Origin: Eledone cirrhosa
Lineage: Eukaryota
DNA length: 64,000 nt
Assembly: GCA_964016885.1 (NCBI GenBank)
Contig: CAXHJY010001028.1
Coordinates: 1-64,000, forward strand
Reading direction: 5' to 3'
The translations under genes were made by a program, and so were the position numbers. Below the pieces are notes generated by a model, which was given only the letters and a program-made list of their open reading frames with translations, was not told the origin of the DNA and did no database searches. Below are positions 10,270 to 50,899 of the stretch, one piece after another. Position 1 is the stretch's first letter. Every line of letters begins with the position of its first letter.

Positions 10270-11640
10270 TATATACCAGCACTGGTGGACCTGCGTTGTC
10301 TGTTGTCATGTATACCAGGACTGGTGGACCTGCGTTGTCTGTTGTCATATATACCAGGACTGGTGGACCTGTGTTGTCTGTTGTCATGTATACCAGGACT
10401 GGTGGACCTGTGTTGTCTGTTGTCATGTATACCAGGACTGGTGGACCTGTGTTGTCTGTTGTCATGTATACCAGGACTGGTGGACCTGCGTTGTCTGTTG
10501 TCATGTATACCAGGACTGGTGGACCTGTGTTGTCTGTTGTCATGTATACCAGGACTGGTGGACCTGCGTTGTCTGTTGTCATGTATACCAGGACTGGTGG
10601 ACCTGCGTTGTCTGTTGTCATATATACCAGGACTGGTGGACCTGTGTTGTCTGTTGTCATGTATACCAGGACTGGTGGACCTGTGTTGTCTGTTGTCATG
10701 TATACCAGGACTGGTGGACCTGTGTTGTCTGTTGTCATGTATACCAGGACTGGTGGACCTGTGTTGTCTGTTGTCATGTATACCAGGACTGGTGGACCTG
10801 TGTTGTCTGTTGTCATGTATACCAGGACTGGTGGACCTGTGTTGTCTGTTGTCATATATACCAGGACTGGTGGACCTGTGTTGTCTGTTGTCATATATAC
10901 CAGGACTGGTGGACCTGCGTTGTCTGTTGTCATATATACCAGGACTGGTGGACCTGTGTTGTCTGTTGTCATGTATACCAGGACTGGTGGACCTGTGTTG
11001 TCTATTGTCATATATACCAGGACTGGTGGACCTGTGTTGTCTGTTGTCATGTATACCAGGACTGGTGGACCTGTGTTGTCTGTTGTCATGTATACCAGGA
11101 CTGGTGGACCTGTGTTGTCTGTTGTCATGTATACCAGGACTGGTGGACCTGTGTTGTCTGTTGTCATGTATACCAGGACTGGTGGACCTGTGTTGTCTGT
11201 TGTCATATATACCAGGACTGGTGGACCTGTGTTGTCTGTTGTCATATATACCAGGACTGGTGGACCTGCGTTGTCTGTTGTCATATATACCAGGACTGGT
11301 GGACCTGTGTTGTCTGTTGTCATGTATACCAGGACTGGTGGACCTGTGTTGTCTATTGTCATATATACCAGGACTGGTGGACCTGTGTTGTCTGTTGTCA
11401 TGTATACCAGGACTGGTGGACCTGTGTTGTCTGTTGTCATGTATACCAGGACTGGTGGACCTGTGTTGTCTGTTGTCATATATACCAGGACTGGTGGACC
11501 TGTGTTGTCTGTTGTCATGTATACCAGGACTGGTGGACCTGTGTTGTCTGTTGTCATGTATACCAGGACTGGTGGACCTGTGTTGTCTGTTGTCATGTAT
11601 ACCAGGACTGGTGGACCTGTGTTGTCTGTTGTCATATATA
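10270..11640. repeat. 39-bp minisatellite, about 35 copies
   Basis: Unit tataccaggactggtggacctg(t/c)gttgtctgttgtcat(g/a). Confidence 0.95.
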
Positions 11641-11789
11641 CCCCCACCCCACGGCACTACATAGAGGTCACGGGAGAGGTCATGACCTGGACACACCATA
11701 TAAGGAAATTAGGAACAATTACAAAAGAAGAAAAAAACCAATTACATCAATAAATATGGACGACATTTATAAAATATTAAATATTGATT

Positions 11790-15169: not shown

Positions 15170-15259
<90 letters not shown>

Positions 15260-15322
15260 GTACATACGCAGTCACATGTGTATTTAATAGAGAGAAAGTC
15301 AGAAAGAGATATATAGATGGAG

Positions 15323-15650
15323 AATCGACCCCAGTATTGCACTGGTATATTTTTTTTTAACCTACAAGGCTGCAAACCAACGTTGACGAAGGTGGGATTT
15401 GAACTCAGAACTCAGAGTGTTGGAATGAATACCACAAGGTATTCTATCTGATGTTCTGACGACTCAATTGGCCGCTTCAGATATTGACAAATATTTATAT
15501 TTATATTTTTCTCTAGATATAAATTACTATTTGTCAACTTTACCTTCCTTCCTTGCGGAGTCGATAAAATAAAGTACCAGTAAAGTACTGAGGTTGATAT
15601 AATACTCCTTTGCCTCTCACCAAAATTGAAGGCCTTGTACCTAAATTCAA
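15323..15650. mobile_element. SINE copies of the same family (minus 15323-15470; plus fragment 15530-15650)
   Basis: gggatttgaactcagaa and gataaaataaagtaccagt motifs. Confidence 0.6.
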
Positions 15651-15716
15651 AATCCTAAAACCCATCCTCCAATCCTTCAACACATCTGACCTTTGCCGTT
15701 GACCTTAACCTTTGAC

Positions 15717-15849
15717 CCTGTTCTAAAGTTGTCGCCACACTCTCCAATTCAATTAGGAAGGTGGCGTCCGAATGGTTGGTCCCTTTAAGACAGACAATGT
15801 TGTCTGATTGGTGAAGACCACACACGAGTCTCTGGTGAAACCTGCTGGT
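15717..15849 (-). CDS. Candidate internal host exon
   Basis: ttgtag acceptor; open frame TSRFHQRLVCGLHQSDNIVCLKGTNHSDATFLIELESVATTLEQ; weak donor. Confidence 0.2.
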
Positions 15850-16045
15850 CTACAAACTTGGTTTGTGATACGGCGACAAACATATACAAACAAATACACA
15901 CATACATACACACACACACATATACACACACATACATACAAACATATATATACATATACATACATATACATACACATACATATATATACATACATACATA
16001 CAAACATACAGACATACAAACATTTATACATACATATACACATAC

Positions 16046-16278
16046 ATGGTGGCTGCCAACTCGTTTTCGAGTACGGCCACTACTTTATATCCATGTAGGA
16101 GAACCCTTACCGATGCGCTGAACGAGTGTGACAATTTAGTCCAGCCAGCGACTTGAAAACTCTGGTACAAACACTACACTTGTGACAATTATTGACACAT
16201 AGTGCTGGGCCCATGGTACCATGTGACGACAAGTGCAGAGAGATCTCCAGATATAAAGCAATGCCTGTGCCGTGAAGC
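16046..16278 (-). mobile_element. 5'-truncated copy of the RTE derivative
   Basis: Reverse complement of the 3' 230 bp ([20 protein letters not shown]). Confidence 0.7.
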
Positions 16279-16499
16279 ATACATACAAACATATATACAT
16301 ACACATACATACATGATGATACATACATACATACATATATACATACATACAAACATATATACATACACATACATACATACAAACATATATACATATATAC
16401 ATACATACAAACATATATACATACATATAGATTTTAAGCCTTCTGTAAACAAAAAAATCAATCATATATAGGAAACCGTTGAGTAAATACTTAATAATT

Positions 16500-16655
16500 A
16501 GCAATTACCCAGTGCATTACTGGTACTTTATTTTATCGTCCCGTAAGGATGAAAGGAAAAGTTAACCTCGACGGGATTTGAACTCAGACCGTAAAGGGAC
16601 GTAACTATGCTGGAAAGAATGGTGTCCGACCCTCTACTGATACCGCCAATCCACG
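16500..16655 (-). mobile_element. tRNA-derived SINE
   Basis: Reverse complement of the 6495 family. Confidence 0.7.
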
Positions 16656-16739
16656 GAATAGTTTTGAGGGAGGTTTTGCTGCTATTTCTAACAGGTTTAG
16701 CAACTGTGTAAGTAGCTCTTCGTCATAGTATTTATAGTA

Positions 16740-16935
16740 GTTAGCAAAACCAACCGACATGAGACCCAGAGGCAGATCCCGAGCAAGAAGGGTGGATAAA
16801 CTCATCTATGAACTTGGCTGGATTAGTTGGAGACAATTACTTACTGACTGGACCCACTGGAAGGAGTGTTTGAGGACATTGTACCCCACGACACCCTCTC
16901 AGGTATAAGTGGGGGTGGGGTAGAGAAGGAAGAAG
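16740..16935 (+). mobile_element. Degenerate RTE LINE 3' end; its GAA-rich tail is expanded to about 17545
   Basis: LAKPTDMRPRGRSRARRVD...DWTHWKECLRTLYP followed by GAA-rich repeats. Confidence 0.55.
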
Positions 16936-17151
16936 AAGAAGTAGGAAGAGGAGGGGGAGAACAAGAAGAAGAAGAAGTAGAAGAAGAAGTAGGAAGAGGA
17001 GGGGGAGAACAAGAAGAAGTAGAAGAAGAAGAAGTAGGAAGAGGAGGGGGAGAACAAGAAGAAGAAGTAGAAGTAGAAGAAGAAGAAAAAGTAGGAAGAG
17101 GAGGGGGAGAACAAGAAGAAGAAGAAGTAGACGAAGAAGAAGAAGAAGAAG

Positions 17152-17183
<32 letters not shown>

Positions 17184-17964
17184 GGAAGAGGAGGGGGAGA
17201 ATAATAATAATAAGAAGTAGAAGTAGAAGAAGAAGAAGAGGAAGAGGAAGAAGAGGAAGAGGAAGAAGAAGTAGGAAGAGGAGGGGGAGAACAAGAAGAA
17301 GTAGAAGAAGTAGGAAGAGGAGGGGGAGGACAAGAAGAAGAAGAAGTAGAAGTAGAAGAAGAAGAAGAAGAAGAAGAAGAACAAGAACAAGAAGAAGAAG
17401 TAGGAAGAGGAAGGGGAGAACAAGAAGAAGTAGAAAAGAAGAAGAAGAAGAAGAACAAGAACAAGAAGAAGAAGTAGGAAGAGGAAGGGGAGAACAAGAA
17501 GAAGTAGAAAAGAAGAAGAAGTAGTAGAAGAAGAAGAAGAAGAAGAGAGGGATGGGGAGGTGGCCTTTTTTAAGGACCTGATAAATGTTTTATTGACTGA
17601 TTCTGAAGTGGTTTTGTCTGTTCCTACGTGGTCATAAACACTGTACTAGATATAAACAAGGTTGTTAGTACGTCTGTGGACACACATATACACACTCATA
17701 CACACATATACACACATTCACACACACACACACACAACTACACACAGCCATATATACATGCAGACACACAGTCCCCCCCCCATACACACACACGTATGTA
17801 TGCATACTTTCCAAAATGGCTGTCTAACTACAAAAAGAAAAAAAAATTCAATTTTCTTCCTTTTCTTACTTTCTCAATCTAACTTCCGATAAAAGATTAT
17901 CACCCGAAACGTTTAGACTCTTTTATATATTAAGCACCAAACTAATATATATCACCATTGCGAT

Positions 17965-18270
17965 ACACACCGAGGATGAAGAACTGAGAGCTGTACGGGA
18001 GCCTCCCAAAAGTCAGTTCGAAAGTGACACAGAGGAGACTGAGGTTAACTGGACATGCTCACCGACATCCAGAGTTGACACTGCACTCAGTGCTCCTGTG
18101 GGAGCCCCTGCATGGATACACTGGAAGAGGAAGACCGAGGTTAACATACGTTGATGCCCCAAGGACAGACACTGGTCTGTGGGAGACGCTGGATATGGCA
18201 GCGGTAATGAGGGACAGAGACCGCTGGAGAGAACTCGTCCATGGGACTCGGGAATTTTACCCACCCTAGA
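17965..18270 (+). mobile_element. RTE-clade LINE 3' coding end
   Basis: ELYGSLPKVSSKVTQRRLRLTGH...GRGRPRLTYVD...DTGL...MRDRDRWRELV, a typical RTE C-terminus. Confidence 0.8.
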
Positions 18271-18547
18271 TATTGCGATATAGTAGAAGTGCCACACAAC
18301 GAGACTGAACCCGGCTATAAAGCAGTTAAATGTCTGTTGTTGAATCATTTCGTAGCTTCCATGTATTGAAATATCTTTATAGTTTGGTAGGTCTTTCACA
18401 TTATATTGTACCACTAATCTTGGTAGATTTTAAAAAGACCAGCTTCAAAATGTCTTCTCTTTCTCAGACTGGTAATGTTTCTGTTGCTGGAACAACTTGT
18501 TTATGGTTGGTAGGTCTTTGACAATATATTGTATCTCCTTTGAACTC

Positions 18548-18682
18548 AGTTACGGCCCTTGCCATTCTGAGTTCAAATCCCGCCGAGGTTAACTTTGCCT
18601 TTCATCCTTACGGGATCGATAAAATAAAGTACCAGTAATACACTGGAATAATTGCTGGCCTTGTGCCAAAGGTAGAAACAAT
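18548..18682 (+). mobile_element. tRNA-derived SINE, 5' truncated
   Basis: gagttcaaatcccgccgagg...aaagtaccagt...gccttgtgcc. Confidence 0.7.
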
Positions 18683-18894
18683 TATATTGTATCTCCAATA
18701 TTGGTAGAGGTTTTTAAAAGACCAGCTTCAAGATGTTATCTCTCTCCTCTCTTAGACTGGTAATTTTTACAGCGGAACAAATAGTGTCAAAGAGTTTCTG
18801 GACAATCCCCACAAGAACACAAGAGGTGATTATATACGGCTCGTTCTTGATAAAATATAGTTTAAGGGTATATGCCCATTCGAAGCGAATATAA

Positions 18895-18949
<55 letters not shown>

Positions 18950-19011
18950 TGTTTCTTTTAGATAGATAGATAGTAAGATAGAGAGATAGATAAAGATGAT
19001 AGATAGATAGG

Positions 19012-19046
<35 letters not shown>

Positions 19047-19443
19047 ATGGACAGGGAGATAGATATAGATAGGTAGAATCATAGATAGATAGATTGAGAG
19101 ACAAAGAGACAAACAGATAGATAGGTGATAGGATAGTAGGTATGAAATACAGTAGGTTAGTAGTGAAGCTAGTAACGACAAAAGCAGTAGGAAACGCAAA
19201 AGACGAGATATATATGAAAAAGTGTAAGACGATAAATCTGTGAGGACCATTGAAGCGAAGCAAGACATGTCACACAGACGTCACACAGACGTCGTCTCCC
19301 TCTTCCTCCAATGTCTCTGCTAAATACATTACACGCCGGTGACCTTCACAGGTTTTCATGAAAACTGGTGTTTATTGCTTTTTGATGGGTCTTCGGTACG
19401 GTTGATTTAACTGGCCAGCCGGACCACTCAACACTCACACACT

Positions 19444-19482
<39 letters not shown>

Positions 19483-19589
19483 CATGGTTGTTGTGGAGTA
19501 GATAGACAGCTAGATAGAGGTATATATATATCTTCACTCTTCTCCCCCCCCCACCCTCGCTCTCTCAGGGCTTTACCTATCTCTATACC

Positions 19590-20190
19590 AACTCTACATC
19601 ACCGCATGCATTGAGTACTCCCATGGTTAGTGCCCCCCCCCCGGGTTCAGAATCAGGGTGGAGAGAGAGGCACTGCACCCCAGTAAATTTACCGAAAGGT
19701 GGGTGAATGAAGCGAAAATGGCCCGAGTGATTGGGCCTTCTCTGTTTATAAGCCTGTAGGTTCAGGAAGAAAGGAGCACCTGCACAGCACGCTCCTGGAG
19801 TTGAGGGTTGTTCTATCGACGGAGTATTAAACAACCCAGTAAGTTTTATGAAAGGTGGGTGAAAGTGGCGAGAATGGCCCGAGTGAATGGGCCTTCTCTC
19901 TATATCAGCCTGTAGGTTGAGGAAAAGGAGGAGGAGAGAAAAGGAGTACAAACTCTTCGTATTCCTGGAGATGAGAGTTGCACATTTTTTCGGGGGTATG
20001 TGTTACCCATATGAACTGTCTCCCCCTATTGGGGAAAATCGACTAATTTTTTAAATTGCATTTGTGATAACATTTTACACGTTTTTATTGTATGTAAACT
20101 TCCCCCTTGTATTTGTCCCCTTCTTTTGTGCCCCTGTGGCTAATAAAGAAACATATCTATCTATCTGTCTATCTGTCTATCTATCTGTCC
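19590..20190 (+). mobile_element. Related LINE 3' end with an internally duplicated C-terminus and (TATC)n tail
   Basis: gaaaggtgggtgaa...aatggcccgagtga..gggccttct occurs twice; ends ctaataaagaaacatatctatc. Confidence 0.55.
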
Positions 20191-20321
20191 TTCTGTCTGA
20201 CTATCTATCGCATCATTCACTTTTTCTTTAAGTCATCATATCAAAATATGGTGATGGAGGGGAATGTGAGGGGGGTGGGGCAACAATGAAAGCATTTCAA
20301 CTCGTGTCACTGGCACACAAT

Positions 20322-20358
<37 letters not shown>

Positions 20359-20619
20359 CACAATAAAGGAGGCATAAAAGACGGGGGTGTTGTGTGGTTA
20401 GCCAGCTGATCACGAGCTGTGTTCTAAATAGGGAACAAACAGAGCTAATAAAACCCTCATTTATTCCCTACCAAAATTACAAAGAGGAAATTAAGCTAAA
20501 GTTATTTCCTATCTATTTAAAGTAGTGCAATATGTAACAATCGAAACCTTACACTATTGTTGTTGGTCATGAGATTGTTTCTGCTTTTCACTATTGTTAC
20601 TATTATAATGACAAGGTTA

Positions 20620-20840
20620 GGGCGGTGGATTGGCAGTATCGGTAGAGAGTCGGACACCATGCTTTGCAGCATAGAGTTACGGCCCTTTACGGTCTGAGTT
20701 CAAATCCCGCCGAGGTTAGCTTTGCCTTCCATCATTTCGGGGGGGGGGGGTCGATAAAATAAAGTACCAGTAATATACTGTAGTCGATTTAATCGACTTT
20801 CTCCTCTTCCTCAAAATTGCTGGCCTTGTGCCAAAAGTAA
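20620..20840 (+). mobile_element. tRNA-derived SINE, full length
   Basis: Same family head, core and tail. Confidence 0.75.
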
Positions 20841-21189
20841 AACACACACATACACACACACAAACAAACACACCCTCATTAACACATATATACACAAGCG
20901 CATATACACACCCACGATCACACAAACGCATGCAAACACACACACACTGATGCAGAGGTTTTCCACCCTCTCTTTGTTTGACCAGGTCTTTATGTAGCTT
21001 CCACCCTCACTCATACTCGCCCCCACTTATTTACTCCTTCACTCACACTCCTAACATCTCACTCATTTTCACCTGTCAACACTTCACTCGATACCCAAAT
21101 GTTTTAATTAACAAGTATAGCGCCACATTTCAATTAGAGCCAGCCGTCTTCCATAACACTTTCTACCAACCTACCTACCTACCTAAATT

Positions 21190-21660
21190 ATATTTAATTT
21201 AATAGATATTTAATTTAATATATTATATTTAATTTAATATATTTAATTTAATATATTATATTTAATTTAATATATTATATTTAATTTAATATATATTTAG
21301 TTTAATATATTTAATTTAATTTAATATATTATATTTAATTTAATATATTATATTTAATTTAATATATTATATTTAATTTAATATATTATATTTTATTTAA
21401 TATATTATATTTAATTTAATATATTATATTTAATTTAATATATATTTAATTTAATATATTATATTTAATTTAATATATTATATTTAATTTAATATATTAT
21501 ATTTAATTTAATATATTATATTTAATTTAATATATTATATTTAATTTAATATATTATATTTAATTTAATATATTATATTTAATTTAATATATTATATTTA
21601 ATTTAATATATTATATTTAATTTAATATATTATATTTAATTTAATATATTATATTTAATT
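21190..21660. repeat. 17-bp essentially pure-AT minisatellite
   Basis: Unit atttaatttaatatatt. Confidence 0.9.
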
Positions 21661-21702
21661 TACCTTACTAATTGTGGTTACCCCCCGATTGAACCAGTGA
21701 CT

Positions 21703-21804
<102 letters not shown>

Positions 21805-21824
21805 CATACATATATGTGTGTATA

Positions 21825-22077
21825 GATAGATAGATAGATAGATATATTTCTTTATGAGCCACAGGGGCACAAAAGAAGGGGACAAATACAAAGGGGGAAG
21901 TTTACATACAATAAAAACGTGTAAAATGTTATCACAGATGGAATTTAAAAGTTAGTCGATTTTCCCCAATAGAGGGAGACAGTTCATATGGGTAACACAT
22001 ACCCCCGAAAAAAAAATGTGCAACCCTCATCTCCAGGAGTACGAAGAGTTTGTACTCCTTTCCTCTCCTCCTCCTTT
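21825..22077 (-). mobile_element. Truncated reverse copy of the same LINE 3' UTR
   Basis: Reverse complement of about 19925-20165. Confidence 0.6.
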
Positions 22078-25913: not shown

Positions 25914-26100
25914 AATATAGATGAGATTCTACAGGACTAGAACTGTTTCATTCTTTAGAAATCATCAGGAATCTGATGATTTCTAATGAATGAAACAGTT
26001 CTAGTCCTGTAGAATCTCATCTATATTAAAACTTTTATACTCTGCTATGTATTGAGTACCTTACTTACTGTGGTTACCTCCGATTCAACCCGGAATAACG
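25914..26100 (+). mobile_element. Family B insert with a 5' fold-back, in (TA)n
   Basis: About 55-bp inverted arms around the hammerhead core, then the tail attgagtaccttacttactgtggttacctccgatt. Confidence 0.7.
25924..25974 (-). ncRNA. Minimal hammerhead ribozyme (family B)
   Basis: Minus strand: agattc CTGATGA tttc-taaa-gaat GAAA cag-ttctagtc-ctg TA gaatct. Stem I 6 bp, GUA triplet. A mirror copy on the plus strand (25973-26017) lacks the 5' strand of stem I. Confidence 0.75.
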
Positions 26101-26234
26101 TATATATATATATATATATATAGTAGAATAATCGAGTATCGAAAAATCGGCGCACGAGTTCACGATAAACAAAATTCGATATATATATATATATATATAG
26201 GAAAAAGTATGACCCCGACGACAGAACTCAAGCC

Positions 26235-26298
<64 letters not shown>

Positions 26299-26890
26299 GG
26301 CTTCTACAGGACTAGAACTGTTTCATTCGGTAGAAATCATCATATCTACTATATAAATTGGAAGTGGTCGGACGTTGTATATTTAAGTAAGTAGGTGTAG
26401 TTGGATAAACGTCGAAACGGCTTGGTGGAATGCACCGAAAATTTACACAGTTATGCAGAATGACCCGAGGAGGCGTTGGGTCGACTTTTAGGGTACAAGC
26501 TTCCATGGTTACGGAGAAAATCGATGAAACAGGAATTTCCCATTCAAATTGAACTGAGAGTAATTTGTGAATGCAGAAGTAAATATTTCGAGAAATGTTG
26601 CAACCGAAGGAAAACAGGAAGGCGATATTTTGATTCTGGAGCGATAAGAACAATTTCATGCAAAGACAAGACCAAGTTTATGGTATAAATGGAGTCGTTA
26701 GACTAATATTCTATTTAACATAACAGAATGATTTCCAGCACCGGAGTTTAAGAGTGATGTAAATAAAATTGAAAACGAAAATGACAGAGGTTATTAAAAT
26801 AGTAAAAGTAAATAGTGAAGATTTAGGCCAGTACATACGTATGCCCCGACGGACATACACATACATACGCACACACAAATACATACCCCC

Positions 26891-32042: not shown

Positions 32043-32084
32043 TGTGTGTGTAGTGTTGATGGTATCAGAGCCTTGGGACATATC

Positions 32085-32151
<67 letters not shown>

Positions 32152-32193
32152 TGTGTGTGTAGTGTTGATGGTATCAGAGCCTTGGGACATATC

Positions 32194-32246
<53 letters not shown>

Positions 32247-32300
32247 TTCATATATATTCATATATATTCATATTTATATATAAATATGAATATATATGAA

Positions 32301-32342
<42 letters not shown>

Positions 32343-32407
32343 ATGTCCCAAGGCTCTGATACCATCAACACTATAAACACAGAGCTGGAATACCTAAGAA
32401 CTGACTA

Positions 32408-32466
32408 ACTGCCTGATGAGGTCATAGTCATTCAATGGCTATCATCGAAATATATATAGTAAATAA
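32408..32466 (+). ncRNA. Hammerhead-like motif in a small element (about 32338-32505) just upstream of the full PLE
   Basis: CTGATGA at 32413-19, stem II atagtca/tggctat, GAAA at 32447-50, palindromic stem III ATATATAT followed by A. Stem I is weak (tgc/gta). Confidence 0.55.
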
Positions 32467-32874
32467 AGGATTATGAGTTCATGCAATTGACTTATGTTTC
32501 GTCACATATATATATATATATAAATAATGAACTTTTTTTGTTTAATATAAGGAATTGTTTATTCATTATTTGTTTAATATTTTATCTTGACTCTGTATAC
32601 CGTTTATCTTTCACCGAAAGTGGATTTTCATTACATCTCTTCTTTCCATGATATCCGGAATACATTGAGTTCTTCATACGGATTGGACACTACCGTAAAC
32701 TCTTGGTAGATTTATCTACATAATTTTGCTCCTATTTTCACGGAAATATTCGTATTTTTGTACTGTATATGTGTATTAATTTTATATTTATGTATAAACA
32801 TATATATATGTATGATTTTGTAAACCCATATACATTTAGTTGAGCTCTTTCAATTGTCCATCATCCATATCACA

Positions 32875-35316
32875 ATGGAAAAACAATATTTAGGAACCTC
32901 CTTAAAAAACATACCAATACCTTCTAAGGACGACTTCTTACTCCTTATGATTCAGAAAACTAATAATTTTATCAGAAGGGTTAGATGGAGAGCCTACCAC
33001 TTCGATAGAAAATCTAAACAAGCAGATCGGAAATATATGTATGATTTCAATACTTACAAGAATCCACCACACAACTTTTTACTTGAAGACTTCGAGAAAG
33101 ACCTTTTTAATTTAATTAAACACCTCAAATTTAAAAAGTATAAATCCGTCTTTCAAAAGGACCTTGATTCTACCCTATTGGACCTAAAAAAGTCTAAAAA
33201 AATCCATGTCCACTCGGACAAAACTGGTAACTTGTATCATATGGATATTGAACATTATAATGAGTTCATATATAAAGAACTCAGAAAAAATTATAAAAAA
33301 TCTAATAATGTGTCACTCACCAACATCAACAACAAAACACACAACATAGTAAAAAAACTAAACATTGAAGATAGAACTGAACCTTTGGCATTGAAAAGAC
33401 CACACTTCAACCTGAAAGATCACAAATCTAACTTTAACTCTAATCCTTCTATTAGACTTATATGTCCCTCCAAATCAGATATTGGAATAATTAGCAAAAA
33501 AATTTTAGATAGAGTCATCCCACAAATAAGAAAACACGTTATTTTACCACTCTGGGAAAACACCTCCCAGGTAATTAACTGGTTTAAAAATATTAGGTGT
33601 AAATCTTCTGCTTCTTTCCTACAATTTGATATAGATAATTACTATTCTTCTATATCACCTATACTCCTGAACAAAGCATTAATATTTGCTAAAAATAGAT
33701 CTAATTTAACTTCGGATGACATTAACATTATTACACATGCTAGACTAACACTTATTGAATTTCAGAATGAATACTGGACCAGAAACACATACAGTAATCT
33801 TTTTGATATTACTATGGGTTCAAGCGATTCCGCCCAAATTACTGATCTTGTGGGCCTCTTTCTCCTTTTCAACATAAATGCCTCTTTTCCCCACCTCAAA
33901 GGTGGTTTATATCGTGATGACTGTCTTCTTCTTTCTAACAACCTTAGCCTTTCAGAAATCGAAAAAAACAAAAAACATATTAGAACTTTCCTTAAAGACT
34001 ATTATAATCTTAATATTACTTTTGAAAAAACAAGTAAAGTAGTAAATTTCCTAGATATAACTTTAGATTTAGCTACGGGTATATACCAACCTTACCATAA
34101 ACCTAACCAAAACTTACATTACATACACTCACAATCTAATCACCCTAAATCTATCCTTAAAAACCTTGCATATAATATATCACTTAGAATTTCTAACCTT
34201 TCTTCTAACCAAGATGTATTTGATAAAAATGCGACCTTTTATAATGAAGCTCTAGATAGAAGTGGCCACAAAAATAGATTAGAGTATATACCTTCTACTA
34301 AAAATACTGAAAGCATACAGCATAATATTACCAACAAACACCAAATGAAAAATACACACCTAAATGCCACCCACAATATACCCCAAAATACTAAATCTTC
34401 TAATATAAAGTATAGTAACCCTCAAAAAACTACTCATCATACAACTATAATAAATATTAATAATAAAACTCCTAATAAAAAAGATAAAACACCTAAATCT
34501 ACAAATATAACTAAAAATAGTTGTGGTGAGATCATTAACATTAATCCTCCTAGTAAAAATCATGATACAACCTATAAAAATAATAAAAATAATAAACAAC
34601 ATAGAAACCGTAATAGACGAGTTACTTGGTATAATGCTCCTTTTAATTTACAAGTTAAGGATAATATTGCTAAAAAATTTTTTTATATCCTTGAGAAAAA
34701 CTTCCCGCCAAACCACAAATACCATCAAATCTTAAATAGGTCTACAGTTAAATTCTCATACTCTACAACAAATAACATAAAACAAAATATAAGTGCATAT
34801 AATGCATATAAATGTAAGAAAACCATAAGTATACCACCAGTACATCAAATTAACAATAATATCTCCTCAAATACAGAATTAACGAAAGGATGTAACTGTA
34901 GAAACAAAACAAACTGCCCATTAAAAGGGAATTGTCTTGTTAACAACATAGTCTATAAATGTAATATTAAAACTAAAGATTCTATTTGCTCATATATAGG
35001 AGCTACCTCTAACAATTTTAAGACAAGGTTTAATACCCACAAGCATAGTTTTAAAAATGCCGCACTGGCTAATACAACATCTCTAGCAGAAAAAATCAAT
35101 AGTTATAAAAATAAGAATATAAAATATGATTTGACCTGGAGTGTGCTCAAAAGAGCCACCCCTTATCAAAATAATAGAAAGGAATGTAGATTATGTTCCC
35201 AAGAACTATTTGAAATAATGAAGTCTAAGGATATCTTATTAAATAAACGACAGGAATTAATTATATCGTGTAATCATAAACTAAAAAAAACATTTAAATA
35301 TTATAAACCTAATTAA
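32875..35316 (+). CDS. Penelope-like element polyprotein: reverse transcriptase plus C-terminal GIY-YIG endonuclease (Hydra-clade-like), about 813 aa
   Basis: Uninterrupted ORF; first ATG at 32875 (MEKQYLGTSLKNIPIPS). N-terminal SDKTGNLY motif. RT motifs FDIDNYYSSI, MGSSDS, GLYRDD and VNFLDITL. Cys linker CNCRNKTNCPLKGNC. GIY-YIG-type VY...YIG...RFNTH, followed by CRLCSQE and LLNKRQE...CNH. Confidence 0.95.
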   Translation: MEKQYLGTSLKNIPIPSKDDFLLLMIQKTNNFIRRVRWRAYHFDRKSKQADRKYMYDFNTYKNPPHNFLLEDFEKDLFNLIKHLKFKKYKSVFQKDLDSTLLDLKKSKKIHVHSDKTGNLYHMDIEHYNEFIYKELRKNYKKSNNVSLTNINNKTHNIVKKLNIEDRTEPLALKRPHFNLKDHKSNFNSNPSIRLICPSKSDIGIISKKILDRVIPQIRKHVILPLWENTSQVINWFKNIRCKSSASFLQFDIDNYYSSISPILLNKALIFAKNRSNLTSDDINIITHARLTLIEFQNEYWTRNTYSNLFDITMGSSDSAQITDLVGLFLLFNINASFPHLKGGLYRDDCLLLSNNLSLSEIEKNKKHIRTFLKDYYNLNITFEKTSKVVNFLDITLDLATGIYQPYHKPNQNLHYIHSQSNHPKSILKNLAYNISLRISNLSSNQDVFDKNATFYNEALDRSGHKNRLEYIPSTKNTESIQHNITNKHQMKNTHLNATHNIPQNTKSSNIKYSNPQKTTHHTTIININNKTPNKKDKTPKSTNITKNSCGEIININPPSKNHDTTYKNNKNNKQHRNRNRRVTWYNAPFNLQVKDNIAKKFFYILEKNFPPNHKYHQILNRSTVKFSYSTTNNIKQNISAYNAYKCKKTISIPPVHQINNNISSNTELTKGCNCRNKTNCPLKGNCLVNNIVYKCNIKTKDSICSYIGATSNNFKTRFNTHKHSFKNAALANTTSLAEKINSYKNKNIKYDLTWSVLKRATPYQNNRKECRLCSQELFEIMKSKDILLNKRQELIISCNHKLKKTFKYYKPN

Positions 35317-35839
35317 TAACATTATTCTAGAAATTAATTTAATTTAAATGTTAGTTAACCTATAAATTTAATTTAATTAATATTTTATTACAGATGAGAA
35401 AATATTATGTAATCATAAATTGTGAAAAACCTTTAAATATTACTAATATATACTTAGTAATTTAATTTATAGATTAATTTTAATTTATTTAAACCTTTTA
35501 TTATAATTCTTTTACAGATAAAATATAACAAAATAATATCATGTATCCAATGACGGAGAAATAATTTTTAGTATTATAGACCTAATTAATATACATTTTG
35601 GAAATATATTTATTATTTGGTTTTAGTTTTAATCAACCTAAAAATTTTAATTTTAATTTGCTTAAAATTAGTATCCTTATACAGACGAATTGCAGAATGT
35701 CATGTAATCATAGAATGGGATGTGTTTTGGATATATACCTAGTTAATATATTCTGTGCAATTTTTTGAAAAAGATATGTATATGTATATGTGTATGTATA
35801 TGTGTGTGTTGTGTATGTGTATCTGTATGTATGTATATA

Positions 35840-35894
<55 letters not shown>

Positions 35895-37042
35895 ATATGT
35901 ATGTATATGTGTATGTGTATGTATATGTATATGTATGCGTATTAATTTTGATTTCTATTTGCATATAATTATATTATGCTATTGATGAAATACAATATCT
36001 GTTTTATGTATTGTATACCTAATTAACATATACTAATTAACGTATACTATTGAAATAAATATATAATTTTTAATTTAGTTAACATATAATTTATATGCTA
36101 CTACCGATGTAATACTTTATTTTATTTTTATTTGGGTTTCTTTTCCCTATTACTAAATTCATCTCCTAATATTGATACCATAACGTTATTAACTTTAATT
36201 TAGTTATAATGTAATTAATAATCTACTACTGTTTGACTTCAAAATTCTGCTTCAAATATTATAAACCTAACTAATTTACACCTTAGAAATCAATATGTTG
36301 ACTATCTTTGGTTTAGTTAACATATGATTAATGGTATACTTATTTATTTTGAGATGCATAGATTTCGTATTTCCTAGCACTGAAAATATGTAAGAACATA
36401 CATTGAATTAAGATACGGAAAATATTATATGTTTCTTGAAACATATATTTACTTTGATCCCCTTCTCCAAACCCCCCCTTTCCCCCATACTATTATCATC
36501 TGTATTTGTAAGCGTCTATGTATGAATATATATGTAGGTAGGTGTCTATATAGGTTTGGGTATTTATATCTAAATATAAAAATACATATATGAGCATGCA
36601 AATATGAATGTAAGATTGTGTGTGTATATATGATTGTACATACATATGTATGTATATATATGTATATATATGCATTATATATGTATGTGTATGTGAATGT
36701 GTTGTATGTATATGTGTATGTATGTGTATATATGTGTATGTATGTGTATGCTTGTATATATAGGAATATATATATGTGTATATATGTATGTATATGTATA
36801 TGCGTGTATGTATGTATGTGTATGTGTGTTGTGTATATATATGTATGTCTCTCTATTTATATATTTATCTTCGTATCTATGTGATATATGTGTGTGTGTG
36901 TGCACGTATGCATATGTATGTGTTTGTGTGTGTTTGTATGTGTGTGTGTATATGTGTGTATGTGCGCACACACACATACACATATATATATATATATGTG
37001 AGTGTGTATGTGTGTCTGTGTGTGTGTGTGTGTGTGTATGTG

Positions 37043-37080
<38 letters not shown>

Positions 37081-37197
37081 GATATATATATATATATATA
37101 TATATAGGTGTCTATGTGTGAATATATGTCTTTATTCGTATGTGTGTATTTATGTATGTATATATTTATGTGTATGTATGTATGTGTATGTATGTAT

Positions 37198-37229
<32 letters not shown>

Positions 37230-37393
37230 GTATATATATATATGTATATTATTCTTTATTATTATAATATAACTTATGTGTATATGTGTATAAGTGAGGT
37301 TGTGTATGTATATATAATATGTGTATATATAAGAGTAATAAAATATATATGTATATGTGTATGTGCATGTCTGTTTTTTATGTGTGTGTGTAT

Positions 37394-37427
<34 letters not shown>

Positions 37428-37564
37428 ATACGTGTGTGTGTATGGATATATATATATATATATACATGTGGGTGTTTGTATGTGTATTTATGGTGGTATG
37501 AGTGTGTGGATATATATGTTTATGTATATATATATATATATATATGTATGAGTCTATGTGTGTG

Positions 37565-37600
<36 letters not shown>

Positions 37601-37923
37601 TATGTGTATATATATGTGTGTATATATATATATATGTGTATGTATGTGTGTATATATATATATCTCTATTAATGCGTGTGTGTATGTATATACATATGCC
37701 TTTTTATTATTATTTTTAGTTGTATGTCTGAGTTTGGTGAGGTTGTATTGTTTTTTATGTATATACACATATATTGAAGCGTATGTATTTATATATATGA
37801 GTATAAGTAGGTGCATATGTATGTATGATTATATATCTAATTCTATGTATGAAGGTACATCTATATATATATATATACGTGTGTATGTAAGTTGTGTGTG
37901 TATGTATCTATATGTCTATGTGA

Positions 37924-37963
<40 letters not shown>

Positions 37964-38052
37964 CGATGTGCGTATATGTATGTACATGTATGTACATGTA
38001 TGTGTGTATGTATGTGTTTGTATATTTAGATGTATGTGTATGTATATGTATG

Positions 38053-38109
<57 letters not shown>

Positions 38110-38943
38110 ATATATATATATATGGATATATATCTTTATTATCTATTTTTTATATATATGTGTATGTGTGTATGTGTTGCGCGTGTGTGTGTGTATATAT
38201 ATATCTTTTTATATGTGTATGTGTATGTTCGTGTAAGTGTATGTGTGTGTATGACTGTATATGTATGTGTGTATGTGTGTATGCGTAAATATCTCTATGT
38301 GCGCGTACATGTATGTATGTGTATATATATCTGTATGTGTATGTATATTATATTATATTTATTATATTTTATTGTTTTATTTTTTTTTATTTTTTTTTTT
38401 TTTTTTTTCTTAATTTATAGATACATTTATATTAGGCAGTCTGCTCAGACAATTGAATACTGACCCCTCCCCCCCCTCCCACCTAATTTCTGTATCTTGA
38501 TCTTGAAATGTGTGTGCCAGTGTTTTATGTGAGTGACTTAATTTCTATGTGCTTATGATTTTATATCCACATATATAAATGTGAGTGGGGGAGTGTGTGT
38601 GTTTGTATGTTCGTGGTTATGTGTATATTTATGCATATACGCGCATGTATGTGTGATTATACTGATATGTGTGAGTATGAAAAAATATATTTATATGCTT
38701 GACTCCATAAGTATCAATGCGCATCTTATCAGCGCATTAAGCTTACAGAGATATTAACCTTGAAATTTTGTGTTTGCATCCATCTTTTTAGTATGCGTAT
38801 ACAAATTATACACACATTTTTGTAAAATATGTGTAAGGATTTTACATGTATATACACACACCGAACTGCTTTTAACCCTTTGTGTTTTCATTGGTCAATT
38901 TTGAACTGATATTTTGAATTGTTGTTATTATCAATAAATATAC

Positions 38944-39098
38944 TTCATTATTTCTGAAGACGGCGTATATATGTGTTAGGTATGTATATTTAATCTTGAT
39001 AATTTGTATAATTTTGTATAATTTTGTACATAGATCTGTTGAATATGCATACCAATTATAACACATATATACCCTAGAAACGATCGTTAAATAATGAA
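38944..39098 (+). ncRNA. Type I hammerhead ribozyme with extended stem II (PLE 3' terminal repeat region)
   Basis: Stem I ttcattattt (38944-53) / aaataatgaa (39089-98), 10 bp. Core CTGAAGA at 38954-60 and GAAA at 39077-80. Stem II includes gtatatatgtgtta/taacacatatatac and ggtatgtatattt/gaatatgcatacc. Palindromic stem III ACGATCGT. GUU triplet, predicted cut after 39088. Confidence 0.85.
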
Positions 39099-39143
39099 CT
39101 TTTTTTGTTTAATATAAGGAATTGTTTATTCATTATTTGTTTA

Positions 39144-39218
<75 letters not shown>

Positions 39219-39726: not shown

Positions 39727-39975
39727 CTCTAGACTTTTTAACTTTGATTTTGAAAGTAGGTTTATAATTATCAATTCTCTCTATACTTTTGTAGCTGTCT
39801 CGGTGGCCTAGTTGGAGGAATCATAGACGGTGGTGATCCTGTCCTGACGTTCGAACCTAGTAGTGAATAGAATTCCCAGTAAACCTTTTCAATTTTTTCC
39901 TATTGGTTATAAAATAAAAACTGAAAAAGGTTACATGTACCTCTTGACCAGGATTGAACCTGAGACCAGGATCTC

Positions 39976-40371
39976 CACGTGGCAAGTGTGTGCAGTTTTG
40001 TGCGTACGTGCAACCGATGCCTTGAAAAGGCGTGAGGGTGTTTCGACGTCTACAATTGCGCCTCTTGACGACACTGACTCTAACATATCTGATAAGACAA
40101 GCGGACAAGTCTCAACGAAGCTGATAACGATTGCATGTTGTATAGTGGTGGTGTTTGGGGATGGCGGAGCGGGTGGGAAATGGTGGTGATGATACACACA
40201 CACACACACGCACATATACACACACACACACACACATATACATATATATATAAGTTAATCCCGGGTTCAATCGGGGGTAACTACAGTAAGTAAGTAAGGT
40301 ACTCAATCATCAGAGCTTAATGATGATTTCTCCCGAATGAAACACTTCTAGTCCCGTAGAAGCCATTTCTC

Positions 40372-40419
<48 letters not shown>

Positions 40420-40573: not shown

Positions 40574-40643
<70 letters not shown>

Positions 40644-40771
40644 GAGAAATGGCTTCTACAGGACTAGAAGTGTTTCATTCGGGAGAAATCATCATTAAGC
40701 TCTGATGATTGAGTACCTTACTTACTTACTGTAGTTACCCCGATTGAACCCGGGATTAACTTATATATATA

Positions 40772-40812
<41 letters not shown>

Positions 40813-41032
40813 GTATCATCACCACCATTTCCCACCCGCTCCGCCATCCCCAAACACCACCACTATACAACATGCAATCGTTATCAGCTTCGTTGAGACT
40901 TGTCCGCTTGTCTTATCAGATATGTTAGAGTCAGTGTCGTCAAGAGGCGCAATTGTAGACGTCGAAACACCCTCACGCCGTTTCAAGGCATCGGTTGCAC
41001 GTACGCACAAAACTGCACACACTTGCCACGTG
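39976..41032. repeat. Inverted duplication with about 400-bp arms (39976-40378 and 40640-41032)
   Basis: Each arm contains unique sequence, a (CA)n tract and a rearranged family B element; only a few mismatches and indels between arms. Confidence 0.85.
40418..40578 (+). mobile_element. Family C insert in (TA)n; a diverged reverse copy lies at 5753-5853
   Basis: Shared gaaacaattgtta(g/a)tacttt...ttgtacagcc...accatgtta. GAAA + palindromic ACAATTGT + U resembles a hammerhead 3' half; the first core is not intact. Confidence 0.55.
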
Positions 41033-41054
41033 CAAAGTCTGGTTGGTGTGTGTA

Positions 41055-46740: not shown

Positions 46741-47184
46741 ACATATTACATCAATAAAAGTCTTCTCACTTTATTACAGAAAACTAAAGTTTTTCTACCC
46801 TTTAAACAACCAATTCCTTCAACGCTTATTCTCCCCAAAGACTTCCTTCCAAGCATTCTTAAATATTTAGATTTCTGTGAAAACCATCAACCTGTCTCCC
46901 CTACTCTTGAAACTAGTATTCACTGGGGACCGGCTTGTTTGTGTAACTTTTCATCAAACGTTGTGGAAACCACTCAATTGTACACAGAGCGTGTCTGTGT
47001 GTGTGTGTGTGCGCGCGCGCGCGTGTGTATGGAGGGGGGGGGGGTATGTGTGTGTGTGTGCACGCGCATACATTGTTGTTTTCTAAGATTTGCTGTGTAT
47101 CTATCTGTCTTACAGTTTCACTAAATACATATGGTTATACACCGCACATAATATATATATATATATATATGGTGGTGCGTGATG

Positions 47185-47228
<44 letters not shown>

Positions 47229-47615
47229 GGGTGGTGGTGGTGGGTGATATATATATATATACGGTCACCTGATCTGACTTATATCACAACAGGACAACTC
47301 GTCTAACCCATACTAGCGTGGAAAAATGTACGTTAAACGGTGTTGATGATGATGATGATGATGATGATGATGTGTATGTGTGTGTTTGTGAATAACCGAC
47401 GCAACAAAATATATCAACAAGAGAAAGTATAGTTCCCAATATCCCACGATTCCGTTGCTCATCCCCTACCCCACTCCACAGGGTGATATCACCCACTGAT
47501 GGGTGATATCACCCTGGTTGGGAATCCCTGATTTAATCGGAATATACTCCGGTATGTTATTGCTTTGTATAAATATAATATATTAGAATGGATGCAGTAA
47601 AAACCTGTTAGACCA

Positions 47616-47783
47616 TTACTCACCAGAGTACTTGATACTTGGGGTAGTAGAGTACGGTTATATGAAGAAGTCGGGACCCCGACGGCTGAGCTCCTGTCGT
47701 TTCAAAAGCTAGATCCGAACAGTTCGAAACTAGCTGTTGAAACGGCAGGAGCTCAGCCGTCGGGGTCCCGACTCCTTCATATA
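47616..47783 (-). mobile_element. Family A (subfamily 2) insert with fold-back
   Basis: Arms gtcgggaccccgacggctgagctcctg / caggagctcagccgtcggggtcccgac. Contains the hammerhead 3' half GAAAcggc...gccgTC ggggtc. Confidence 0.65.
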
Positions 47784-48125
47784 AATATTCTATAAATGTG
47801 TAGTAAGTCAAAAAAGGATATTCTTAAAGTCTGTTGGATGTACTTTGAGTTAAATATATTTTCACTACTGCAGCTCATGGGTCTTGCTTCAGTCTTAGTT
47901 ATTATATCTGAAAGATAATAAAAAATGGTTAAAGATGTTTCGTAACAACTCTTGGAAGAACCACACAACAAATCCAGAACTTTCTGATGATTCTAGCAAA
48001 GATTACTGCAAGAAATTCTGGTAACTCAGCAAAGATGGCGATTGGCAAGTCACGAATAACACAACTACGGATAACTCGTGGGAAATAAAACTGGTAATAA
48101 AGAAGAAAGTACTATATATATGTAT

Positions 48126-48327
<202 letters not shown>

Positions 48328-48369
48328 GGAGGGTCATATTGTTGGAATAGTATTGCCAGAATTAATAAC

Positions 48370-48459
<90 letters not shown>

Positions 48460-48942
48460 ACATATATATTTGTATATAAGTGTGTGTGTAAATATATATG
48501 TGTGTGAGAGAGTGTGGAGAATGAAAAGATTGTGAGAGAGGTAGAAGGAGTGGGAGAGAGAGAGAGAGGGGAGGGAGAGAGAGAGTGGGGGAGGGAGAGA
48601 GAGAGAGAGAGGGTGAAGGTTTAGAGATAAATGATCGTATTCTCAGAGAAGAGATAAAGATGGTTTCTGATGATGTTAAAGATAAAGTTCTTCATGTTTT
48701 GTACACTGTGACCCTTGCAGGGGTATACGGGGTATATATGGTGGAGGGCTGGGACTATGGAAGTATATATATATATATATGTGTGTGTGTATATGGGTGT
48801 GTCTGTATGTGGGTGTCGGTGTCTATGTGTGTGTGTATGTAGGTGTGTGTGTCTGTGTGTGTGTGTGCATATGTGTGTGTGTGTCTGTATGTGTGTGTGC
48901 GTCTGTATGTGAGTGCGTGTGTGGGTGTGTGTTTCTGTGTGT

Positions 48943-48976
<34 letters not shown>

Positions 48977-49131
48977 CTGTATGTGAGCGCGTGTGTATGT
49001 ATGAGAGTGTGTGTGTGTGTGTGTCTGTATGTGTGTGTGTGTGTGTGTGTGTGTCTGTATGTGTGTGTGTGTATGTGTGTGTGTCTGTATGTGTGTGTGT
49101 GTGTGTGTCTGTATGTGTGTGTGTGTGTGTC

Positions 49132-49162
<31 letters not shown>

Positions 49163-49163
49163 C

Positions 49164-49247
<84 letters not shown>

Positions 49248-49271
49248 TGTATGTGTGTGTGTGTGTGTGTC

Positions 49272-49309
<38 letters not shown>

Positions 49310-49333
49310 TGTATGTGTGTGTGTGTGTGTGTC

Positions 49334-49410
<77 letters not shown>

Positions 49411-49731
49411 CTGTATGTGTAGTAGTGTTTGAAACTGTAGCAGACAAGATAGAGATCTAAGAATATGGATGTAACGAAAGTTGCCCTCTGGTATTACTTT
49501 AGGAGAGCGGTGGTGGTGGTGGTGATAGAACACCACCACCACCACCACCACCACCAACATCACCTTACCAACACACCACCACTACCACCACCCACCACTA
49601 CCATCACCAGCACCACCACTATTACAATACTATATGTCAGTTTTATAACCTGTGATTTATAATAACACAGAGCCTACGTAGTAGAGTCTTATTTATGGCA
49701 GTTAATGGGCTTATAACTATATTATAGATTA

Positions 49732-49802
<71 letters not shown>

Positions 49803-49805
<3 letters not shown>

Positions 49806-50323
49806 CGTTTCTGAATTTGTTTAGCAAGATTCATTATCTGAAAACGTGTGTTGAAACCGATATTGTTATACTTTGGTAGGGTCATGTTGCCAATAAGAAA
49901 CACACGCATCAGTTGCTTTCACTTCAATTTATTATAATAAATTTATAAATTTAGGAATTTATAAATTTCCGGTTGGTTGGTTGGTTCCACAACCAGATGG
50001 TTGTTTATATATTGTCAAAGTTCTTTCGTCACACATTCTGTGACCTCTTCAGTGACTGGGGATTCTTTTCTTTGTTTTTTCTTTTGTTCTGTGCTACGCC
50101 ATCTTGGATGGCGTAGGACAGAACAAAGCAGAGGCAAAGGAAAGGCACAGAATGTGTGACGATAGAACTTTGACAATATATAAACAACCATCTGGTTGTG
50201 GAACCAACCAACCAACCGGAAATTTATAAATTCCTAAATTTATAAATTTATTATAATAAATTGAAGTGAAACAACTGGTGCGTGTGTTTCTTATTGGCAA
50301 CATGACCCTACCAAAGTATAACG
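49803..50323 (-). mobile_element. PLE-like terminal repeat with a long inverted duplication
   Basis: About 175-bp inverted arms (49865-50042 and 50145-50322), a nested inner hairpin at 50083-50128 and a hammerhead on the minus strand; (TA)n flanks. Confidence 0.7.
50014..50056 (-). ncRNA. Minimal hammerhead ribozyme inside a 460-bp palindrome
   Basis: Minus strand: gtca CTGAAGA g gtcaca-gaatg-tgtgac GAAA g-aa-c TT tgac. CUU triplet; one extra G after the core. Confidence 0.65.
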
Positions 50324-50413
50324 ATATATATATACACCTATATAATTAGAAAGTGAACAACACAATATAGAACTACTCCATTACGAAAGGTTTCAGGATC
50401 CTAGACAATATTA

Positions 50414-50450
<37 letters not shown>

Positions 50451-50593
50451 AGAAAGAGAGGGGGAGAGGGGAGAGAGTGAGAGAGGAGAAGGAGGAGGAG
50501 GAGGAGATAGAGAGAGAGAGAGAGAGATGTTTATCCCCGGTTCAATCAGGGGCAACTACAGTAAGAAGCCATTTCTATATATATAAATATATA

Positions 50594-50654
<61 letters not shown>

Positions 50655-50659
50655 ATATA

Positions 50660-50899
50660 TAACGAAGGAGTTGTGGTAAGGAACCAGATGGACCATAACG
50701 CACCAGAGTACTCAATACTTAAGGTAGTAGAGTGGGTAATAGGAGAAAGTATGACTCCGACGGCAGAGCTCAAGCCATTTCGACAACTTGAGCTCTGCCG
50801 TCGGGGTCATACTTTTTCCTATTACCCACTCTACTACCCTAAGTATTGAGTACTCTGGTGCGTTGTGGTCCATCTGGTTCCTTACCACAGCTCCTTCGT

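Follow-up and report, generated by a model that had tools for sequence, protein, structure and literature searches.

A Hydra-type Penelope-like element of Eledone cirrhosa with a 3.6-kb microsatellite-rich 3' region that is probably copied with the element

The window analyzed here, 64,000 nucleotides of Eledone cirrhosa DNA (assembly GCA_964016885.1, contig CAXHJY010001028.1, positions 1 to 64,000), is microsatellite-rich animal DNA with a single long coding frame, which is unbroken and lies on the + strand at 32875-35316. The frame belongs to a Penelope-like element (PLE) of the Hydra clade, spanning 32522-39149, in which 3.6 kb of repetitive sequence separate the stop codon from a hammerhead ribozyme. 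The explanation that we favor, with a probability of roughly 60%, is a single transposed unit whose 3' region is family-wide, was enlarged within its lineage from about 0.1 kb to 3.6 kb and is copied along with the element. The anatomy of the element, its junctions, the repeats derived from its own open reading frame (ORF) and the multi-copy sequence next to the ribozyme are directly observed. The parts are, in order:

32507-32522, no strand: (TA)8, left half of the target; the last 1-2 bases are ambiguous with the element start
32521-32585, + strand: 5' copy of the terminal direct repeat, identical to 39088-39152
32523-32874, + strand: 5' untranslated region, from the junction to the first ATG; the proteins of relatives begin at the same residue
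32875-35316, + strand: intact ORF of 813 amino acids with Penelope-type reverse transcriptase (RT), Asn/Thr/Lys-rich insert, CxCx5C linker and C-terminal GIY-YIG endonuclease; Hydra clade
35259-36350, + strand: degenerate tandem copies of a unit of about 137 bp straddling the stop codon (the unit, four significant copies and one weak copy)
35771-35947, + strand: first TG/TA tract, with ORF-end copies on both sides
36615-38353, + strand: main imperfect (TA)/(TG)/(TATG) block, G 342 against C 69
38354-38408, + strand: T-rich tract, a length variant of which stands before the island in an X5 contig (aligned at 38366-38394, 2/200 shuffles)
38409-38943, + strand: ribozyme-proximal island of 535 bp, multi-copy and diverged in runs labelled organisms A, B and D
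38944-39098, + strand: type I hammerhead (folding z -6.8, 0/200 shuffles), predicted cut 39088|39089
39089-39152, + strand: 3' tail, the 3' copy of the terminal repeat, 61-64 nt beyond the cut
39150-39215, no strand: (TA)33, right half of the target

Boundaries of the insertion and ends of the 3' region

Both termini of the element fit one insertion into a TA tract. The 5' junction (32522) is the first base past the predicted ribozyme cut, within the 1-2 bases left ambiguous by the TA flank, and the terminal repeat matches at 65 of 65 positions (E 9e-28), base 32522 corresponding to 39089. The element is without a full upstream pseudo-long terminal repeat (pLTR); measured from cut to cut, the monomer comprises 6,567 nt. 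Among 14 relatives with repeated post-cut sequence, the repeat reaches 24-137 nt beyond the cut in 13, the remaining one being a full tandem. In 13 of the 14 the upstream match extends left of the cut, by 4-203 nt, and in the fourteenth a different ribozyme occupies that place. The claim that the element targets (TA)n fits the (TA)8 and (TA)33 flanks as well as the target listed for the Hydra clade (PMC8557442).

The interval from the stop codon, which ends at 35316, to the first stem of the ribozyme, which begins at 38944, is 3,627 bp long (35317-38943), exactly as delimited in the original prediction, and a strict scan detected no other ribozyme between the stop codon and 38944. The AT-rich degenerate repeats noticed after the stop codon are present and turn out to be copies of the ORF's own end. 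The 137-bp unit at 35259-35395 aligns significantly at 35396-35530 (score 67, 0/200 shuffles), 35525-35690 (63, 0/200), 35945-36110 (48, 1/200) and 36225-36440 (43, 0/200). A weak alignment at 35685-35775 was reached by 9/200 shuffles, as was one of the upstream controls, and no significant alignment was obtained at 36100-36240 (29/200), 36440-36620, 38400-38945 or two upstream controls. The copies are about 65-83% alike, while the terminal repeats are identical, so the copies predate this insertion and travelled with the element. The first TG tract sits among them. That the left end of the 3' region is element DNA is therefore well supported.

The right end was compared with public sequencing runs, four of 18 of which were covered over 38409-39149: the contig runs X4, X5 and X7 and the raw-read run X16. 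The three contig runs also contain the ORF stretch (shares 0.50, 0.61 and 0.24), and no RNA run was among those listed with it. In the four runs, 30/30, 28/30, 28/30 and 30/30 bins of 38409-39149 are covered by 259, 147, 35 and 8,309 records, respectively, which are distributed across all identity bands; the X16 records divide into 300 at 99% identity or more, 1424 at 95-99%, 2022 at 90-95% and 4563 below 90%. From this coverage in four runs, by records from 99% to under 90% identity and including a run of only 88 million letters (X5), the island is an interspersed repeat rather than single-copy DNA of the host. The island and the ribozyme core are bridged by two records of X5 with a divergence of 15-20% (38874-39011 and 38889-39086), and a contig of X7 (organism D, depth 51) spans the TG-rich patch of the island at 38469-38644. 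Records of X5 and X7 continue past 38409-38411, one of them entering a variant of the same T-rich tract. As a separate observation, the T-rich sequence at 38354-38420 ends in TTTATAG and resembles a polypyrimidine tract with a splice acceptor, a possible trace of a retained 3' intron.

Microsatellite content, rival explanations and mechanism

Purine/pyrimidine-alternating tracts make up 1,626 of the 3,627 bases of the 3' region (45%), compared with 23% of the 57,368 bases outside the element. The blocks at 35771-35947 and 36615-38353 total about 1.9 kb, in agreement with the 2 kb of imperfect (TA)/(TG)/(TATG) sequence reported earlier. The region contains 11 perfect runs of at least 8 TA units, the longest perfect TA run measuring 40 bp, and no homology was found between its islands 2 and 3. 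All 12 tracts carry TG on the + (sense) strand, and in-tract dinucleotides number 283 TG to 21 CA inside the region (13:1) against 1001 TG to 1094 CA outside. The chance of 12 tracts running the same way is about 0.003 given the observed autocorrelation. Outside the element, orientation flips 26 out of 63 times among 64 strong tracts, but two runs of eight same-way tracts also occur, TG at 46988-50666 and CA at 15224-21829. Of 100 outside windows that overlap one another, match the region in length and hold 1 kb of tract or more, one (47001-50627) has a skew of at least 0.66, namely 0.68 versus 0.69 in the 3' region. The near-uniform TG orientation that had been described is thus real, while its contrast with flanks said to flip often is smaller than stated. 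The TG-oriented run at 46988-50666 may represent a transcribed intron or a second carrier element. A TG bias as a clade-wide trait of 3' untranslated regions was rejected on the 3' spacers of relatives, where TG exceeds CA in 23 of 54 and falls below it in 27.

The region had been proposed to be part of the transposed unit. For its two ends this is well supported, by the ORF-end copies and the multi-copy island, and the question narrows to the central block of 1.75 kb. The copy comparisons lie outside 35761-38408, and we consider sharing of the block across the family only somewhat better than an even bet. Other observations also weigh against a family-wide 3' region moving as one unit. Among the records listed for the four runs, none spans all of 38409-39149, the bridging X5 records have a depth of 2, and part of the island signal (38559-38660) is generic TG sequence. 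Many records also depart from the island: X16 has loose ends before 38842 (1,182 reads) and 38849 (567) and behind 38900 (1,272); X7 has 255 letters loose before 38907 and zero depth at 38834-38883; X4 is loose before 38914; and one X5 contig can be aligned only from 38738 onward, 45 letters remaining unmatched. The ribozyme end is therefore common to subfamilies or truncated copies whose upstream sequence is different. No higher-order repeat links the central block to the element: of nine pairwise tests, eight were non-significant and one, on a match of 21 bases, reached 4/200. A second long copy was not detected in viral contigs or, by ribozyme pattern, in genome contigs, and a search for shorter proteins reached a best identity of 63%, again without a second copy. 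The identity of the 65-bp repeats bounds divergence only to less than about 4.5%, and the relatives used for comparison are mostly short contigs that break in microsatellites, which leaves long variants under-sampled. On the supporting side, three loose ends near the ribozyme did not match the ORF end, and thus give no sign of a version of the family with a short 3' region.

If the block is not shared, the element could still be one unit, with the central 1.75 kb private to this copy or a small sub-lineage, through capture of read-through host DNA or a later insertion in an internal (TA)n, and a shared 3' region of about 1.9 kb. This is considerably less probable than a family-wide region and is nevertheless the most serious alternative. 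It has a precedent in Pen1_Av of Adineta vaga, copies of which are described as 90% identical with unrelated spacers of 0.9-1.5 kb before the 3' pLTR (PMC3846280). The block also resembles other microsatellite DNA of the window and lacks element-derived repeats, and a similar TG-skewed run lies at 46988-50666. The TG orientation of the block, however, is also that of the tract among the element-derived repeats and of the island patch common to other copies, and the T-rich edge of the block is reached by records of other copies that continue out of the island. In the corresponding capture test, the last 535 bp of the 3' region are common to other copies, the comparison being limited to that end.

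The same arrangement would also result from two insertions of one family: an ORF copy that had lost its ribozyme end and, about 2 kb further downstream and oriented alike, a 3' fragment truncated at its 5' side, the DNA between them being microsatellite of the host. Ribozyme-end fragments are indeed abundant, to judge by the increase in depth toward the 3' end; (TA)n is the target of the family, and several other ribozyme-bearing fragments lie in TA tracts of the window. We consider two insertions unlikely all the same: they require, besides matching orientation, that the end copied first in target-primed reverse transcription was lost, and the tail is identical to the 5' end at 65/65 positions although most of the copies compared are under 95% alike. 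Even then, at least about 1 kb after the stop codon and 0.5 kb before the ribozyme would be family DNA. An assembly artefact joining two copies through microsatellite sequence is more improbable still. The region is of low complexity, and Craig et al. call PLE insertions hard to assemble (PMC8557442), but perfect TA runs inside do not exceed 40 bp, the block is heterogeneous and both termini fit one insertion exactly.

For a single unit with a family-wide 3' region, the following course would account for the structure. A source copy in partial tandem would be transcribed, and its upstream hammerhead would cut the RNA and set its 5' end, consistent with the genomic 5' junction on the predicted cut. 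The RT-GIY-YIG protein would then nick a (TA)n tract, as the flanks suggest; target nicking is known for other PLE clades. Reverse transcription would begin about 60 nt past the downstream cut and copy the tail, the ribozyme, the 3.6-kb region and the ORF up to the cut 5' end, and such internal initiation would yield the 65-bp terminal repeat in the geometry observed. The 3' region would have grown over many cycles by slippage and template jumps, a course modelled on the process proposed for Asn-rich inserts of rotifer Penelope elements, which invokes read-through and template jumps (PMC3846280); the ORF here contains an insert of this kind. The tandem copies of the ORF end, which are present in the sequence, would have come first, and TA/TG tracts would then have been acquired from targets or read-through flanks and expanded. 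The RNA route, the activity of the element and the origin and sharing of the block are what we infer here. The structure suggests an order of growth for the 3' region, with self-duplication of the ORF end preceding microsatellite. The position of the 5' junction at the ribozyme cut gives one in-vivo hint of cleaved RNA being usable as a template, something that an in-vitro study of another clade did not see (PMC11167929).

The TG bias admits a more tentative explanation, which we regard as doubtful: adenosine-to-inosine (A-to-I) edits of self-complementary (UA)n RNA could have been fixed as TA>TG on the sense strand by reverse transcription. If so, the element would act as a carrier throughout its family, turning the (TA)n targets that it captures into TG/TA tracts and passing these on, and its copies would preserve, with dates, RNA editing that reached the germ line via a transposon. 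RNA editing activity is high in coleoid cephalopods. The TG:CA ratio of 13:1 inside and 1:1 outside, the absence of the bias from the short 3' spacers of relatives and an excess of A/G transitions are consistent with editing. In the raw-read run, A/G transitions exceed T/C (53/86 places, p 0.002), and the three contig runs show the same direction without significance. These counts are inflated by generic TG reads, and the same bias may also stem from a single TG seed duplicated locally, from biased errors of the RT or from transcription-coupled repair, all of which weakens the case for editing. No description of A-to-I edits fixed this way in PLEs was found among the titles and abstract openings listed in a literature search.

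It is plausible from the sequence that the element spreads new TA/TG tracts as future targets, and each full-length copy would deposit about 1.6-1.9 kb of microsatellite. The further suggestion in the original prediction, that it might drive the microsatellite load of this genome, is not supported. Contig depth in X4, X5 and X7 is 7-68 at 38709-38833 but reaches at least a few hundred at the ribozyme (depth not being copy number). This rise fits 5' truncation, and most copies, probably carrying only the ribozyme end, would thus be without the block. As a yardstick only, 1,000 full copies would supply about 1.6-1.9 Mb, less than 1% of the 209 Mb of simple repeats given for the Octopus vulgaris genome (PMC13282606). 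Given the probable truncation, the family probably contributes little to the microsatellites of the genome. An element of this kind would be broken up by repeat pipelines in which simple repeats are masked; its full-length copies would go unnoticed, and the tracts that it carries would be counted as microsatellite of the host.

Clade, ribozyme and size against relatives

A protein search with the ORF returned 98 homologs among 8,000 scored candidates (identity 33-48%), and alignment with 15 of them (16 rows) gives the domain order RT, linker and C-terminal endonuclease. YRDD at 346 is invariant in this alignment; a VYK..YIG stretch lies near 690-705, with two Cys between its halves in a Cx8C spacing that is not conserved. 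The insert rich in Asn/Thr/Lys is about 100 residues long (475-576). Pfam and PDB searches gave no informative match, and the RT and GIY-YIG assignment therefore rests on likeness to published Hydra proteins. A single ORF with RT followed by GIY-YIG, and a terminal repeat tied to the ribozyme, both present here, are the features of PLEs with a C-terminal endonuclease; membership in Naiad/Chlamys was rejected on the position of the endonuclease and the presence of the hammerhead. The RT motifs of the Hydra clade are present, with RWR at 37 and DKT (in place of DKG) at 115, as are its Cys/His motifs, CNCRNKTNC (CxCx5C) at 673, CRLC (CxxC) at 771 and CNH (CxH) at 799, without CCHH. The predicted three-way junction fold supplies the 3' hammerhead of the clade and the flanks its (TA)n target, whereas the typical but non-diagnostic length under 3 kb is exceeded. 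The reference motifs (CxCx5C, CxxC and CxH around the catalytic E and N, DKT, RWK-type) are those of section 11 of Craig et al. (PMC8557442). Judged by motifs, ribozyme and target, the element is placed in the Hydra clade; it is young and probably mobile. No credible host gene was recognized among the 70 of 95 other window ORFs that were scanned.

The hammerhead was located by pattern and folding, with coordinates from an unconstrained fold, and Rfam at gathering score gave 0 matches in the window. Stem I pairs 38944-53 with 39089-98 (10 bp), the core CTGAAGA starts at 38954, GAAA occupies 39077-80 and a palindromic stem III lies at 39080-87, palindromy of this stem being a mark of dimeric hammerheads. 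Stem II (38960-39076) has a mismatch at its base, as do most Hydra ribozymes listed in PMC8557442. It is about 120 nt long with a 10-bp tandem in its loop, compared with roughly 10-35 nt in relatives. The common variants 38965 G>A and 39072 C>T hit one stem II pair (unphased), and the raw reads include a few variants skipping 84-86 nt of the stem. In run X7, a loose end at 38947 is inverted and resembles a PLE-type inversion.

The relatives compared comprise 93 loci of about 35-45% protein identity, 83 of them with an endonuclease end (92 ends). A strict downstream hammerhead scan, which also missed the ribozyme of this window, scored 56 of the 92 ends and gave a median stop-to-ribozyme distance of 106 nt, against 3,638 nt here. 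The longest spacer, 772 nt in locus L032, proved to be an artefact: the ORF continues to 4147 and the distance falls to about 100, which leaves 462 nt as the largest real distance among the scored ends. Twelve ends (11 unscored ones and L032) were inspected; a CTGANGA core lies 79-182 nt from the stop codon in five, at 323 in one and is not seen in four, L005 has one only at 3,602 nt, in high-GC sequence, and L032 is a case of C-terminal extension. Monomers of the 14 relatives with repeated post-cut sequence measure 2,362-2,759 nt. Hydra elements are called "generally short (<3 kb)" in the published section on them, where 14 complete consensuses measure 2,084-2,729 bp and all 27 listed reach at most 3,045 bp (PMC8557442). 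The size of about 3 kb in total that the original prediction gave as usual for related PLEs is thereby borne out, and the known size range of the clade is extended about 2.7-fold. The 329 recent Penelope insertions that PMC13282606 reports for O. vulgaris total 1.80 Mb and by our computation average about 5.5 kb; long PLEs may therefore be common in octopods and already present in repeat libraries. Literature searches turned up no account of a long microsatellite-bearing 3' region in a Hydra element, and the O. vulgaris repeat library (Zenodo) or Repbase may contain one.

Besides the motifs (RWR/RWK, DKT, CxCx5C, CxxC, CxH), the Hydra elements described in PMC8557442 share with this one a single ORF, a 3' type I hammerhead and the (TA)n target, and differ from its 6,567-nt monomer, 3.6-kb 3' region and stem II of about 120 nt. 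Hydra-1_Obim of Octopus bimaculoides (2,507 bp), as given there, belongs to a different family, its protein start and ribozyme differing by eye. Pen1_Av of A. vaga is similar in its intact PLE ORF and long spacer before the 3' pLTR, with Asn-rich inserts in its sister families; its spacers of 0.9-1.5 kb are unrelated between copies, whereas the 3.6 kb here begin with ORF-end copies and end with a shared multi-copy island (PMC3846280, in the passages on this family). In Litopenaeus vannamei, recent Penelope copies carry internal simple sequence repeats (SSRs) that moved with the element (PMC7878876, Fig. 2g), and the young copies are proposed there as carriers of SSR expansion. Microsatellite hitch-hiking on Penelope is thus already in print for shrimp, in passages that give neither clade, ribozyme, 3'-region size nor strand bias (PMC7878876). 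The PAc/Poseidon element of Anolis carolinensis likewise has a 3' tail from an internal RT start and a preference for AT-rich targets; internal RT initiation is demonstrated in vitro only, for a Poseidon element (PMC11167929). Poseidon is another clade, in which cleavage is dispensable in vitro and no RNA reads start from the cut, whereas the 5' junction here lies on the predicted cut (PMC11167929).

Two relatives have Hydra-type ORFs that extend past the endonuclease into a C-terminal domain resembling Ulp1/C48 cysteine proteases (L032:3590-4147 and L080:2393-2995), with the motif H...D...Q-x5-DCG. PF02902 matches them at E 0.028 and 0.0016, both below gathering score, and the two domains are 38% identical to each other (E 7e-40). 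Such an extension is unmentioned for Hydra in the section of Craig et al. on that clade (PMC8557442). Hydra-type elements also occur in 16 loci (L001-L016) of genomes titled bacterial metagenome-assembled genomes, probably in animal host DNA. In one of these, L005, the GC content of a 492-kb contig changes abruptly close to its end, from 32-45% to 55-64%.

Other ribozymes and repeats in the window

A second, unrelated ribozyme-like element occupies the same TA tract just upstream of the PLE (32043-32510), with CTGATGA near 32413; two inverted 78-bp copies of 32304-32381 lie within it, at 32043-32120 and 32152-32229 (96%). Its part at 32340-32510 was considered as a pLTR of the present element and rejected, as it has no similarity to it. 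Two more hammerheads, at 61224 (+) and 25968 (-), are each followed by a short tail and (TA)n, and look like the 3' ends of other PLE or retrozyme families; the one at 25968 lies in a fold-back. Further pieces of the 25968-type ribozyme element are found at 26051-26343 and 50564-50637, and a degenerate relative of it is contained in an inverted duplication at 39965-40417 and 40598-41043 (453 bp, 96.5%). The window also holds three minisatellites of 92-97% match, at 1716-2623 (57 bp x16), 10267-11642 (39 bp x35) and 21187-21662 (19 bp x26).

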